This document shows, piece by piece, positions 56,729 through 63,222 of a DNA stretch of 64,000 nt; the stretch's first letter is position 1, and every line of letters starts with the position of its first letter. The stretch is from Escherichia coli (GTDB lineage Bacteria; Pseudomonadota; Gammaproteobacteria; Enterobacterales; Enterobacteriaceae): assembly GCF_050320075.1 (NCBI RefSeq), contig NZ_CP190018.1; one strand, 5' to 3'. The notes beneath the pieces were generated by a model. The model was not told where the DNA came from. It saw only the letters and a list, made by a program, of their open reading frames with translations, and ran no database searches. A program made the position numbers and the translations under genes.

Positions 56729-58729
56729 TCATCCTTGTTGCTGAAGCATGGGGAATAATTGTTCGCAAAGTAAAACACCGTTATTCATTGCTTCTACCCG
56801 TGCCTCGCTTTCTGTATTACGAAATTGTGCCAACACATGTGCCAGCCGATAAAAAACCACCGCGGTGAGGTCATTCGCCAGCAACTCTGCCTGACCAATA
56901 GCACTCTGTTCCTGATAGCGCCAGCCGTTATGGAGCAGTTGAATAAGTAACGCCTGGCAGCGCATCAGCAACTGATGAGCGGTAGACGGCACAGGCAAAA
57001 CGCTGGCAGAAGGTAGCGGTGCCACAGGCGCAGTTTCTGCGTCCAGCGCCCAGGCGCGGGTTTTGGTCATCATTACCCGTGGTTCCAGTGTCAATTGCCC
57101 CTCTACAAAGCTGACAAAGCCAGAAACCAGACTCACGGGGTCGTCTGTTTGTTGCAAAAGCGCCGCCATGCGTTCAACGGCAAAAGGAGAACAGGCAGAT
57201 GCCGGAAGGGATAACGTCAGCAGATTATCTTCACCTTCGCCGCTGATTACCTGCGCGTCCAGCGTCTGGCGGCTGCTATCCCAACCGAGTGAAATACACT
57301 CAGCGACTGGCAGAATAAATAAGTTATCCACCTGATTAAGAGGCCGTATGCAGGCGGGGGGACGCTGGCGTAAATATTCACGCAAAGCCACAATGCCCGG
57401 CTGGCGCAACGGCGCACTCAACATTTGCCAGGCGTCTGGCGACAGTGGAACAACACTACTCAAGCGGTTGCGGGTAGCTAACAGCAGCTCGCCATCGGCA
57501 CTGCGTTTTGCTGCTTGTGAAACAATTTGCCCACCAGCCAGTGCGCCAGCCTGAAAACTAAACAGCCGACGCGTCGCTGCCGGTGAGTTTTCCTGTTCGC
57601 TTCTCGGCCAACTACGCGAAAGATGCAAAATACTGCCGGTGTCGGGATCGGTAAACCAGATGCGTAAACCATACTGCTCAATATCCTGCCAGCAACGCAT
57701 ACCTAAAGACACCAGCCGCAGATGATCAAGCTTTGCTTCTCCGGCAATGCCAGCGCCAACGACCGTGCGCCACGGCATGGGAGGAACTTCACCAACACTG
57801 TCGCGCCGGGCCATCTCTTGTGCACAATTTAATCGATTGTTTAATGCCGCAAGCTGACGTAAGCATTCTCCGGCATGATAGTGGCTGGCGCGGGCGTGGA
57901 AGGCATCAACGCTGGCGCGCAGTTGCCGTAGCGATTCACTCACCCAGCGCCAGTTGCAGCGTTCCGCCGCTTGCTGCGCGCGGCTGAAAGCAGCCTCGTA
58001 ATGAATAAGCGGCTGGCTGATGCCGCCAAGCCATAACGCCTGGCTTAATTGCTGAACATATTGACGACACGCGTCCCCCTCATCGTTGGCAAACGGATCG
58101 TCAGATGATGTGACGTGTTCGCTGCGCATCTGCCAGATTAAATGAGTAAATTCCGCTTGCTGCGCTTTGGCCTGGACAAAGGCCTGTACTGCCAGTACGA
58201 CATGTTCGCAAAGTGTTCCTTCAATACAATCACAGCGAGCGAAACGAATGCTGCTGCGGGAATAAAAACGTACATCGCTCATCGGTAAGCGGGCAGAGGG
58301 AATTTCGCTCGGCGTACAGAACAACTCAATGGTGATGCCTTTAGCGACCAGTGCCTGTGCGCGTTTGCGGGTGGCATCGGGCAGGGTAGCCAGTTCTTCC
58401 AGCCAGATTGCCGGATCCCACTCTTCTTCTTTTTCCGTAGTCTGGGTGGTGGCGCAAAGTCGCTGATAACTTAAAACCAGCATCACGCGATGGCGGCACA
58501 TGCCGCTGGCCCCGCAGCTGCACTGAGCCTCTTTCAGTGCCTGACCGTTCGCCAGCTGGGTACGGACACCGTCACTGAAGGTGGCGATTAAAGCGCCGTT
58601 CTCATGGCTGATCTCCGGGACGTTGCCATTTTCCAGTTCCTTAAGACTGCGCTTAACAAAACCGGCATTGCTTAACGCTGTCAGGGCCTGCGGTGTCAGT
58701 TCTAATAATTCCGGACGTAGTGAATTCAT
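56729..58729 (-). CDS. yehQ: SWIM zinc-finger protein YehQ
   Basis: ORF from ATG at 58729 (MNSLRPELLELTPQ...); two CxCx(n)CxH SWIM-type motifs (AQCSCGASGMCRHR, ARCDCIEGTLCEH); ATGA overlap with yehP stop. Confidence 0.85.
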   Translation of the reverse strand: MNSLRPELLELTPQALTALSNAGFVKRSLKELENGNVPEISHENGALIATFSDGVRTQLANGQALKEAQCSCGASGMCRHRVMLVLSYQRLCATTQTTEKEEEWDPAIWLEELATLPDATRKRAQALVAKGITIELFCTPSEIPSARLPMSDVRFYSRSSIRFARCDCIEGTLCEHVVLAVQAFVQAKAQQAEFTHLIWQMRSEHVTSSDDPFANDEGDACRQYVQQLSQALWLGGISQPLIHYEAAFSRAQQAAERCNWRWVSESLRQLRASVDAFHARASHYHAGECLRQLAALNNRLNCAQEMARRDSVGEVPPMPWRTVVGAGIAGEAKLDHLRLVSLGMRCWQDIEQYGLRIWFTDPDTGSILHLSRSWPRSEQENSPAATRRLFSFQAGALAGGQIVSQAAKRSADGELLLATRNRLSSVVPLSPDAWQMLSAPLRQPGIVALREYLRQRPPACIRPLNQVDNLFILPVAECISLGWDSSRQTLDAQVISGEGEDNLLTLSLPASACSPFAVERMAALLQQTDDPVSLVSGFVSFVEGQLTLEPRVMMTKTRAWALDAETAPVAPLPSASVLPVPSTAHQLLMRCQALLIQLLHNGWRYQEQSAIGQAELLANDLTAVVFYRLAHVLAQFRNTESEARVEAMNNGVLLCEQLFPMLQQQG

Positions 58730-59862
58730 GACTGAAGATTCTCCGCAAGCCATGATGCCAGCTCGCCCGGTGTCATGGCGGCTATTTGTGCGCCGACATT
58801 AACCAGCGCCTGGGCCGTATCGTGGTCATAGCAAGGTGTTGCGGTGCTATCGAGCGCCGCCAGTCCCAGCACTTTGATGCCGCTCTGGACACACTTTTTC
58901 ACCTGATGCGTCAGTAATGATGATGAACCCCCTTCGTAAAAATCGCTCACGAGGATAATGACGCTTTTCGCTGGTTGTTCAATAAGTTGCCGACCATATT
59001 CCATGGCACTGGCGATATTGGTTCCGCCGCCTAATTGCACTTTCATTAATAACTCTACCGGATCGGCAACGTCTGCCGTGAGATCAACCACGCTGGTGTC
59101 AAACGCCACCAGATGGGTACGAATACCGGGTAACTGCCATAAACAGGCCGCCATCACCGCTGAGTGGATCACCGAGTCAACCATCGATCCGCTTTGATCA
59201 ACCAGTAAGACCAGTTGCCATTGATCGCTATGGCGCTTAATGCGGCTGTTAAAGCGGGGGGATTCGATATACAACTTGCCGTGTTGCGGATGCCAGTGTT
59301 GCAGGTTGGCACGCAGCGTACTTTTGAAATCGAAATTACGCGCCAGTGGAATAAATGAGCGACGGCGGCGATCGCGGACACCAGAAAAAGCCTGGCGAAC
59401 TTCCTTTGCCAGTCGCGCCATAATCTCTTCAACAACCTGGCGCACTATCCGGCGAGCGGCAGCCAGCACTTCGGGATTCATCAGATGTTTGGTGTGCAAA
59501 ACGGCGCGTAGCAGGCTTTCAGAAGGCTGCATACGTTCCAGTACGTCGAGATTCGTCACCACATCTTCAATGCCATAGCGCAGCACGGCATCGCTTTCCA
59601 GCCGCTCGATCACCTGTTGCGGAAACAGCGTGTGAATACTGTTGATCCACTCAGGGGTGGTGAGATTTGAGCAACCTAATCCACCGGAGCGTTCACCACG
59701 CTGGAGCCGTTCAGGATCGCGCCCATACAGCCACTCCAGCGCGTGGTCTATCTGCCGGGCATTGTCATCCAGCCCACAAAGGGTCGTTTCTGCCGCTTCG
59801 CCAAGAATTAATCGCCAGCGTTGTAGCTCACGGGTGGTCAGAAGATCGTTCAGTTCAGACAT
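58726..59862 (-). CDS. yehP: von Willebrand factor A domain protein YehP
   Basis: 378-aa protein from ATG at 59862 (MSELNDLLTTRELQRW...); MIDAS motif DQSGS in LVLLVDQSGSM. Confidence 0.88.
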   Translation of the reverse strand: MSELNDLLTTRELQRWRLILGEAAETTLCGLDDNARQIDHALEWLYGRDPERLQRGERSGGLGCSNLTTPEWINSIHTLFPQQVIERLESDAVLRYGIEDVVTNLDVLERMQPSESLLRAVLHTKHLMNPEVLAAARRIVRQVVEEIMARLAKEVRQAFSGVRDRRRRSFIPLARNFDFKSTLRANLQHWHPQHGKLYIESPRFNSRIKRHSDQWQLVLLVDQSGSMVDSVIHSAVMAACLWQLPGIRTHLVAFDTSVVDLTADVADPVELLMKVQLGGGTNIASAMEYGRQLIEQPAKSVIILVSDFYEGGSSSLLTHQVKKCVQSGIKVLGLAALDSTATPCYDHDTAQALVNVGAQIAAMTPGELASWLAENLQS

Positions 59863-62134: not shown

Positions 62135-62144
62135 GCATCTTTCC

Positions 62145-63222
62145 TCACGGCAGGCGGTGGCGGGCTTGATAATAAGCCTGCCAGTGAGCTTCTTTATGTG
62201 TGGCGACACGCTGTTCGAAGTAACGGCGCAGACGCGCGCGATCTTCTTCGTTATCTTTAACGATGGTTCCGGCAATACAGTCCACCAGATCGGCTGGCTC
62301 ACCTGCGCGATTCGCTAAAAACCAGGCGCGGACGCCCACTGCGTGGGCCACGTTCACGGCTTCAGCGGTGGATATAATTGCCGTCAGAGTATCCATTGAC
62401 GTTTTCTTTTCGCCGTTGGCACGCAGATCGCGGAAGGTGCGGACCAGTAACTCCAGTACCGCGTCAGGCACTTTATGCGGAATACCGCTATGGGCCAGCA
62501 AACGCGCCGAAGCACTGGCGACCAGTTCCAGCTCCTGGGCGAAATCCATAATCGGAAAGACGGTTTCAAAATCGAAGCGACGCTTTAGCGCGGCACTCAT
62601 CTCATTGACGCCGCGATCGCGGGTATTGGCAGTGGCAATAATATTAAAGCCTTCCCGCGCATAGAGCTGACTGGCTTCACCGGTGAGTTCCGGCACCGTC
62701 ATCACCCTGTCAGAAAGCATACCTAACAGACAGTCTTGTACTTCCAGCGGTGTACGCGTTATCTCTTCAAAACGGACGATTTTGCCGTCGCGCATTCCCT
62801 GGTAAAGCGGGGCAGGGACCAGTGCTTCCGTAGACGGACCATGGTTGATAAGCAGGGCGTAGTTCCATTTGATCTTCAGTAGTAGATGCGCCGCCCTGGA
62901 TGGTTAACCCGGCATCGCCGCTAATAGCGGTTGCCAGTAATTCAGACAGGAGAGATTTTGCGGTGCCCGGTTCCCCCACCAACATCAAACCGCGCCCGGT
63001 GGCAAGAGTGACTAACATACGTTCGACAGCGGAGGGACTAATCACCACTTTACGGCTAATATTTTGCGCGCTATCGCCAAGGATAAAAGCACGGGCCGCA
63101 GGCAAACTTAACTGCCAACCGGGCGGGCAAGGTGCGTTATCATTTTGTTTTAATTTTGCCAGTTCATCGGCGTATAACACAGCAGCAGGCGGACGCTGCA
63201 GATGATTATTCTGCGGTGACAT
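62145..63222 (-). pseudogene. yehL: yehL (MoxR-like AAA+ ATPase) carrying a frameshift
   Basis: N-terminal frame (MSPQNNHLQ..., Walker A GEPGTAKS) ends in an off-frame tail; C-terminal frame (...[19 protein letters not shown]...) is +1 shifted; span is 1078 nt, not a multiple of 3. Confidence 0.75.

Follow-up and report, generated by a model that had tools for sequence, protein, structure and literature searches.

In the described NorQ-NorD, CbbQ-CbbO, RavA-ViaA and CoxD-CoxE systems, the gene of a MoxR AAA+ ATPase lies close to the gene of a vWA protein with a MIDAS motif, and a motor-adaptor mechanism has been described for MoxR-vWA pairs (PMC9976466). A similar core of MoxR and CoxE-like vWA proteins is joined by extra large partners in the MoxR-vWA ternary conflict systems (Kaur et al. 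2020), which are common in actinomycetes and myxobacteria. In the eukaryotic ribosome-assembly remodeller midasin (Rea1), an AAA_5 motor is likewise coupled to a MIDAS domain, within one giant polypeptide with six AAA modules that acts on pre-60S particles. One of the seven subfamilies into which MoxR proteins are divided takes its name from YehL of Escherichia coli (PMC3893208). In this paper, the yehLMPQ region of an E. coli window (the whole stretch of 64,000 nucleotides that was analysed) is compared with these systems. With a probability of roughly 0.6, the region is read as encoding a self-contained MoxR-vWA remodelling machine, four of the five parts of a conserved module.

As seen in the ORF list and the RefSeq annotation, positions 56729-63222 of the window hold the four co-directional genes yehQ-yehP-yehM-yehL on the minus strand; the reference for this layout is the RefSeq annotation of strain M217, which is 100% identical. 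The gene of the MoxR-class ATPase, yehL (62145-63222), and the DUF5682 gene yehM (59855-62134, 759 codons) are pseudogenes. Intact genes are found in yehP (58726-59862, 378 aa), encoding a CoxE-type vWA protein with a complete MIDAS, and yehQ (56729-58729, 666 aa). A 10-bp gap separates yehL from yehM, the end of yehM shares 8 bp with the start of yehP (ATGTCTGA), and the yehP stop overlaps the yehQ start as ATGA. These gene identities and overlapping junctions had been given in an earlier sequence-only reading, and they agree with the ORF list, the RefSeq annotation and the comparison with K-12. Beyond the yehQ stop, at a distance of about 80 nt, a consensus scan alone detected a terminator-like hairpin with a T-rich tail (56634-56650, minus strand), a candidate for the end of the operon. 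At the other side, the 3' end of yehK (63798-64000, minus strand) runs off the window. Because yehK is positioned between yehI (DUF4132) and yehL and the window ends in yehK, both yehI and molR lie just outside it.

Comparison of loci indicates that the four-gene cluster, correctly described as to its four genes, belongs to a larger unit. Among 82 loci, L and M are found in 82/82, P in 80/82 and Q in 76/82, and one to three WGR-DUF4132 genes precede L-M-P-Q in 76/82, spread over four phyla; the E. coli representatives are yehI and molR. The order I-L-M-P-Q is kept in Gamma- and Betaproteobacteria, Myxococcota, Actinomycetota and Acidobacteriota, and the five genes keep their order together while the flanking genes change. 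One locus (L088) carries L-M-P-Q without an adjacent DUF4132 gene. DUF4132 paralogues have multiplied, and actinomycetes and myxobacteria often carry the module. The yehLMPQ genes are four genes of a five-component block, which is recognised here for the first time, and the upstream WGR-DUF4132 genes are probably part of the functional unit.

The motor and adaptor parts are readily assigned. YehL is matched by Pfam AAA_5 (E 1.9e-33), and in 84 homologues its invariants are the Walker A GxxGxAKS, the Walker B VRFEE, the sensor-1 N203 and R218. Walker A, Walker B, sensor 1 and arginine finger of the MoxR AAA+ core are thus all found in the YehL family; the copy in the window is frameshifted after residue 118. 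YehP is matched from end to end by Pfam VWA_CoxE (E 3.2e-72). Its MIDAS, DxSxS...T...D, had been called intact, and all five residues are indeed present in the window translation (D222, S224, S226, T281 and D307); the motif is kept in 82/84 homologues. Like the catalytic signatures of YehL, it is conserved across phyla. A YehP homologue is located two genes downstream of YehL in 80/82 loci.

This close placement of a MoxR gene and a MIDAS vWA gene is shared with NorQ-NorD, CbbQ-CbbO, RavA-ViaA and CoxD-CoxE. Unlike these systems, the yeh module adds DUF5682, SWIM and WGR-DUF4132 proteins and has no linked client enzyme, and its Walker B holds Glu-Glu, in 84/84 YehL homologues, rather than Asp-Glu. 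By sequence, the closest solved relative of YehL is the midasin AAA ring, through its AAA_5 modules (E 2.5e-7). However, the yeh module consists of separate proteins, and no tie to ribosomes was found for it.

YehM had been described as a 759-aa protein with no recognisable motif. This description does not hold, as the domain and structure predictions that the same reading had suggested returned Pfam DUF5682 (E 3e-98) and a structure model with a pLDDT of 92.6. In the model, a ChaN/TraB-like alpha/beta domain, a fold shared with the Tiki/TraB/ChaN/EreA superfamily, spans residues 1 to about 240, and an ARM/HEAT-like helical solenoid extends from about residue 445 to residue 759. Invariant His, Glu and Arg residues are placed in the predicted ChaN/TraB-like pocket. 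Sequence-level proof of kinship with TraB or ChaN was sought and abandoned: HHalign of the N-domain against the YbaP (TraB) family was not significant (probability 0.3%, E 0.19, with a shallow YbaP alignment of close homologues only), and hmmsearch of its profile against PDB sequences found no Tiki/TraB/ChaN/EreA member at E <=10. Pfam ChaN (Cofac_haem_bdg) matched only 2/66 members of the YehM family, at E 5.5e-3 or weaker. The modelled resemblance is therefore at the level of the fold only, plus these two weak Pfam matches. Unlike members of the superfamily that includes erythromycin esterase, the YehM domain is fused to a helical region of about 500 residues. Natural YehM-YehP fusions were also found (P0228 and P0168), and the P0228 locus has no separate P gene. 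YehM and YehP are likely to be physical partners.

YehQ had been credited with two SWIM fingers. Both are present in E. coli, but they differ in conservation: the first (C70, C72, C78, H80; Pfam E 9.7e-4) is invariant in 48/48 homologues, and the second (C166, C168, C174, H176; Pfam E 0.21) is found in only 27/48. After the SWIM fingers, the YehQ model (pLDDT 90.5) continues with a helical bundle and then two beta-barrels (about 331-560), and it ends in C-terminal helices. Matches of the structure model indicate that the paired barrels weakly resemble HIN, RPA70 and LEF-3 (E about 1e-3, probability 0.97-1.0). SWIM fingers are able to bind protein rather than nucleic acid. Together with the block itself, the YehM model of a ChaN/TraB-like domain plus solenoid, the paired barrels of YehQ, the YehM-YehP fusions and the damage to the K-12 copy described below are new here.

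If the module works like NorQ/NorD, CbbQ/CbbO and RavA/ViaA, a hexamer of YehL would drive the vWA protein YehP, whose MIDAS ion would grip an acidic residue on a client. YehM may serve as a scaffold attached to YehP, carrying the modelled ChaN/TraB-like pocket. YehQ, with its SWIM finger and paired OB-like barrels, and the WGR-DUF4132 proteins would provide recognition, possibly of nucleic acid. Apart from the DUF4132 genes, no constant neighbour was seen in the loci examined; for this reason, the likeliest clients or sensors are the WGR-DUF4132 proteins.

Concerning regulation, the yehLMPQ operon is silenced by H-NS (PMC3686432). A hint of a link to DNA damage comes from the paralogue molR, which alone has a LexA-box-like site, 10 bp before yehF (PMC6590174), and from Deinococcus regulon data (PMC8533742). 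SOS control of the module was considered and rejected, as the window holds no LexA box of the form CTGT-N8-ACAG and no Cheo box upstream of the module, and about 50 loci of other taxa showed no enrichment of LexA or Cheo boxes ahead of their DUF4132 genes. A recurring near-match falls within coding sequence.

In the window, two genes of the operon are broken. Compared with K-12, yehL has an 11-bp deletion (TCAAGTATGGC is missing) with its junction at 62867/62868, minus strand, after codon 118. The frame shifts past Walker A (residues 83-90) and ahead of Walker B (E156-E157), and the predicted product has 151 aa with Walker A only; because the frame is lost before Walker B, this YehL should be unable to hydrolyse ATP. 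In yehM, codon 224 (61463-61465, minus strand) is TAG instead of the TCG of K-12, and the product ends at residue 223. PGAP also marks yehL as 'frameshifted' and yehM as 'internal stop' in the M217 annotation. Among 5426 complete E. coli genomes, the exact yehL junction was found in 220, the exact yehM TAG 61-mer in 214, and the whole region at >=99% match in 213. Because both lesions recur exactly in about 214-220 of these genomes, they are lineage markers and not sequencing errors, fixed in a lineage of about 4% of complete E. coli genomes. Two independent inactivating lesions had been reported before, with artefacts named as the point to be checked; the K-12 comparison, the PGAP flags and the genome survey establish that they are real. 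Judged from the sequence, the module would be dead in this strain.

It could be argued that the lesions are errors or are harmless, in that YehM, split into 1-223 and a restart product, and YehL, split into two fragments, would still work. The modelled YehM fragment 1-223 does hold the whole ChaN/TraB-like domain, and a GTG-initiated ORF of 516 aa follows the yehM stop codon. However, the identical pair recurs in genomes that were assembled independently, the yehL frameshift leaves Walker A out of frame with Walker B, sensor 1 and the arginine finger, each of them invariant in the family, and none of the 82 loci showed YehL or YehM naturally divided at these points. This explanation is extremely improbable.

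Relative to K-12, dN/dS is 0.047 for yehL, 0.129 for yehM, 0.046 for yehP and 0.116 for yehQ. Values of 0.05-0.13 indicate that purifying selection acted on the operon until recently, and since they are low over species-level divergence, the lesions must be recent; the relaxed selection suggested earlier for this lineage fits these data. In an obligate complex, once one subunit is gone, the remaining subunits become neutral. The operon evolves faster than its flanks. Loss has also occurred elsewhere: the K-12 copy has an amber codon in yehQ (codon 615) and a molR pseudogene, a deletion is described in Shigella sonnei (PMC12795559), and a transposon is inserted in it in ST131 (PMC9334617). The case of this strain is an ordinary lineage-specific two-hit loss of a dispensable operon.

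Two other functions were weighed against the general remodelling machine. The module could be an anti-phage or anti-plasmid conflict system, in which a MoxR-vWA switch senses foreign nucleic acid through the WGR, SWIM and OB modules and then frees a YehM hydrolase or a DUF4132 effector. MoxR-vWA pairs are the core of proposed conflict systems (PMC7159879), and both these systems and the yeh module are common in actinomycetes and myxobacteria; several parts resemble nucleic-acid-binding modules, and H-NS silencing, evolution faster than the flanks, repeated separate losses and multiplied DUF4132 paralogues all fit this proposal. However, Kaur et al. name no SWIM, WGR, YehL or DUF4132, the yeh partners lack VMAP, iSTAND, beta-propeller or a recognisable effector (Pfam finds DUF5682, SWIM and DUF4132/WGR only), and bpMoxR matches YehL over only 51 residues at a marginal E of 0.0024. 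A PADLOC scan of YehF, I, K, L, M, P and Q gave 0 matches, 5396/5426 E. coli genomes carry the locus at one fixed position, and the flanks in seven other sampled genomes are ordinary and without defence genes, except for one ParE pair. A known defence-system identity was therefore rejected, and the conflict-system link hinted at earlier, together with the defence-island association suggested for survey, found no support. Carriage on mobile elements was rejected as well, with the module in 39/72,556 plasmid and 1/50,697 phage records; near-100% PHROG matches are too close to these chromosomal E. coli proteins to carry information and probably stem from over-extended prophage calls. The low dN/dS also argues against a conflict system, which we regard as unlikely.

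Alternatively, the module could act as a chaperone that inserts a cofactor or metal, in the manner of CoxD/CoxE, NorQ/NorD or the chelatases, with the ChaN-like domain of YehM holding metal or haem and an unlinked client enzyme, perhaps in molybdenum metabolism. Cofactor insertion is the role of most MoxR-vWA pairs characterised so far (PMC9976466, PMC7159879), VWA_CoxE is the best Pfam family of YehP, weak NCBIfam matches to cobaltochelatase and GvpN exist, the fold modelled for YehM is of the ChaN type, and molR has the historical label 'molybdate metabolism regulator' (PMC6590174 Table 1). Nevertheless, no linked client metalloenzyme gene was present in any locus examined, unlike the cox, nor and cbb operons, the SWIM, WGR and DUF4132 parts have no counterpart in cofactor systems, and in Deinococcus the molybdate-metabolism genes are unchanged alongside the DUF4132 genes (PMC8533742). 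Such a role is distinctly unlikely.

No published function for yehLMPQ was found in the literature, as had been stated earlier, and no functional statement on yehQ or yehP was found in phenotype papers. Because K-12 itself is damaged, null phenotypes in K-12 collections are uninformative. These findings bear on a MoxR subfamily, named after YehL, that has had no function since its definition, and the enzyme-like pocket predicted in YehM offers a few invariant residues as targets for mutation. A bolder and doubtful extension is that the five-gene block is a widespread, previously unrecognised nucleic-acid surveillance machine of midasin-like design, in which an AAA_5 motor would pull through a MIDAS adaptor, the WGR, SWIM and OB parts would read the state of DNA or RNA (damage or foreign nucleic acid), and the YehM pocket would be a hydrolase. 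If this were true, the machine would have escaped genetics through the truncated yehQ of K-12, its broken molR and silencing by H-NS.

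As seen in the ORF listing, four co-directional genes occupy window 56729-63222 on the minus strand: yehQ (56729-58729), yehP (58726-59862), yehM (59855-62134) and yehL (62145-63222). The junctions claimed in the sequence-only reading are borne out, since the yehP stop and the yehQ start share ATGA and the yehM stop overlaps the yehP start by 8 bp (ATGTCTGA); yehL and yehM are spaced by 10 bases. The sequence is 100% identical to that of E. coli strain M217, whose PGAP annotation marks yehM with 'internal stop' and yehL with 'frameshifted'. Compared to K-12, 11 bp (TCAAGTATGGC) are missing from yehL after codon 118, which puts the frameshift past Walker A (residues 83-90) and ahead of Walker B (156-157). 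In yehM, codon 224 is changed from TCG to TAG (window 61463-61465). The yehL deletion junction recurs exactly in 220 complete E. coli genomes, and the 61-mer with the yehM TAG does so in 214; Sanji, AR_0149/0150/0151/0162 and WCHEC005237 are among the carriers. Over the whole region, 213 of 5426 genomes show 99% identity or more. Because of this exact recurrence, the two lesions are fixed markers of one lineage, and sequencing errors, which the sequence-only reading had allowed for, are ruled out. A harmless split of the yehL and yehM products is rejected as well, being contradicted both by the population data and by the position of the yehL frameshift. The four-gene cluster with two independent inactivating lesions is thus confirmed, and its earlier interpretation was essentially right.

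The dN/dS values of this allele against K-12 are 0.047 for yehL, 0.129 for yehM, 0.046 for yehP and 0.116 for yehQ, showing that purifying selection acted on the operon during nearly all of the divergence from K-12. Judged from these low values, the lesions are recent. Identity to K-12 is 93-97% in most 400-bp windows of the operon (window 56797-63186) and yehI, and about 95-99% in those of the flanking btsSR, yehS and yehR (window 53599-56797). When the ranked genomes were sampled at even spacing, the first allele beyond the approximately 213 near-identical ones had about 96.4% identity. The double hit in adjacent genes fits a domino pattern, in which the remaining subunits of an obligate complex drift after the first has been lost. 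The only other pseudogene in the annotated part of the 64-kb window, and the third in all, is the catecholate siderophore receptor gene cirA (window 21112-23089, plus strand), which carries a frameshift in the annotation of the identical strain M217. The decay of yehLMPQ in this lineage is ordinary.

The unit to which these genes belong is larger than the four genes of the sequence-only reading; the yehLMPQ cluster stands, and its extent must be widened to include WGR-DUF4132 genes (I). A YehM-motif scan of one genome per species recovered 80 loci, and the recovered loci were searched with HMMs built iteratively from them. Homologues of YehL and YehM are present in 82 of 82 loci, of YehP in 80, and of YehQ and DUF4132 in 76 each, some of the missing ones being due to contig ends; one locus has no adjacent DUF4132 gene. 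The order I-L-M-P-Q, displayed in Variovorax and Serratia as WGR-DUF4132, AAA_5, DUF5682, VWA_CoxE and SWIM, is nearly always preserved across Gamma- and Betaproteobacteria, Myxococcota, Actinomycetota and Acidobacteriota. The upstream DUF4132 paralogues often number two or three in actinomycetes. In E. coli there are two such paralogues, molR (yehF-yehH) and yehI, with the small gene yehK behind them; all three are at or past the right end of the window. The flanks vary between loci and resemble ordinary genes. GCA_022841245.1 (locus record 1227-19543) has what looks like a second module in tandem: a HEAT-repeat gene and then another AAA_5 and DUF5682 pair come after a pair of DUF4132 genes, AAA_5, a DUF5682-vWA fusion and a YehQ-like gene.

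YehL matches AAA_5 (E 1.9e-33), and of the seven subfamilies of MoxR one is named after it (PMC3893208). Among proteins of solved structure, the AAA modules of midasin are nearest to it in sequence. The Walker A motif, Walker B, sensor-1 N203 and R218 are invariant in 84 of 84 homologues. The usual Walker B is hhhhDE; that of YehL (residues 152-157, K-12 numbering) is VRFEE, with an unusual Glu-Glu that is subfamily-wide (84/84). YehP matches VWA_CoxE across the whole model (E 3.2e-72), and its MIDAS residues are kept in 82 of 84 homologues. Both SWIM-type fingers previously noticed in YehQ are present in E. coli; the first (C70, C72, C78, H80) is invariant among homologues, of which only 27 of 48 retain the second (C166, C168, C174, H176). 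The YehQ model (pLDDT 90.5) displays the SWIM region, a helical bundle, two beta-barrels (about 331-560) and C-terminal helices. No sequence relatives of YehM, YehP, YehQ or YehI were found in the PDB. YehM, which is Pfam DUF5682, was modelled from a 66-sequence alignment (pLDDT 92.6). Its invariant residues (R10, H11, E35, H51, E83, D101, E143, R175, E176, H202) cluster in the N-domain, suggesting a catalytic or metal-binding pocket there. The predicted likeness of this domain to ChaN/TraB is at fold level only: a weak Pfam ChaN match is seen in 2 of the 66 members, a comparison with the YbaP family by HHalign (E 0.19) did not confirm homology, and hmmsearch of PDB sequences with the N-domain found nothing.

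The YehL motor and the YehP MIDAS adaptor are conserved and look catalytically competent. Synteny ties them to three large partners, and some species have M and P as a single fused protein; in the YehM homologues P0228 and P0168, DUF5682 is followed by a complete YehP homologue (54-55% identical), and the P0228 locus has no separate vWA gene. By analogy with NorQ/NorD and related pairs (PMC9976466), a YehL hexamer would drive YehP, whose MIDAS site would hold the client, with YehM as a scaffold or enzyme attached to YehP. Recognition would be supplied by YehQ and the WGR-DUF4132 proteins. Since no further gene shows constant linkage, the WGR-DUF4132 proteins are the leading candidates for the role of client or sensor. 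A cofactor-insertion machine fits the CoxE-type vWA of YehP and the predicted ChaN-like fold of YehM, against which stands the lack of a linked client enzyme. A defence system, in line with the conflict-system association hinted at earlier, could be read from the recurrent loss of the region, the paralogue expansion and silencing by H-NS (yehL and yehM are repressed by H-NS/StpA; PMC3686432); however, PADLOC, the text of Kaur et al., genomic context and mobility give it no support. PHROG families 29006, 30700, 33984, 31592, 20839 and 36295 are near-perfect matches to the chromosomal YehQ, M, P, I and K proteins; such closeness makes them uninformative on phage origin, and they probably derive from over-extended prophage calls.

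A nucleic-acid link is suggested by WGR in YehI homologues and by the SWIM finger and OB-like barrels of YehQ. The listing of molR as LexA-regulated (PMC6590174), with a box-like LexA site 10 bp before its start, and the derepression of Deinococcus DUF4132 and WGR genes upon DdrO depletion (PMC8533742) point the same way. At the regulatory level this link is not conserved: the window contains no LexA box, and no enrichment of LexA or Cheo boxes was seen in other taxa. As the sequence-only reading supposed, no published functional assignment for yehLMPQ was found in the literature. A +1 frameshift-prone site has been described in yehP, together with a cited swarming phenotype of its knockout (PMC2790909); at window 58989-59004 (minus strand), the Shine-Dalgarno-like GGAG stimulator is lost in this lineage. 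Between yehL and yehK lies a zorO-orzO type I toxin-antitoxin locus (window 63334-63409, minus, and 63655-63744, plus), described by Fozo et al. (PMC2887945) and absent from K-12. Its OrzO sRNA matches Rfam RF02083 (101 bits), a promoter-like site (window 63451-63423, minus) fits OrzO, and the ZorO toxin is a 29-aa ORF (MDTLTQKLTVLIAVLELLVALLRLIDLLK).

The same region has been damaged independently in K-12, Shigella sonnei and ST131. In Shigella sonnei lineages 2 and 3, yehM and yehL are deleted (PMC12795559), and in an ST131 sublineage a resistance transposon lies in the metG/DUF4132/yeh region (PMC9334617). In K-12, yehQ carries an amber at codon 615 (GAG>TAG; positions 3286-3288 of the K-12 locus record L002), by which 52 C-terminal residues are removed, and molR/yehH is pseudogenised. 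The exact 61-mer with this amber occurs in 348 complete genomes, both exact matches listed being laboratory strains. The locus is already known as a catalogued gene cluster of unknown function; what is added here is its extension to a five-part architecture, structural clues to YehM and YehQ, and a warning that the K-12 module is likewise defective.
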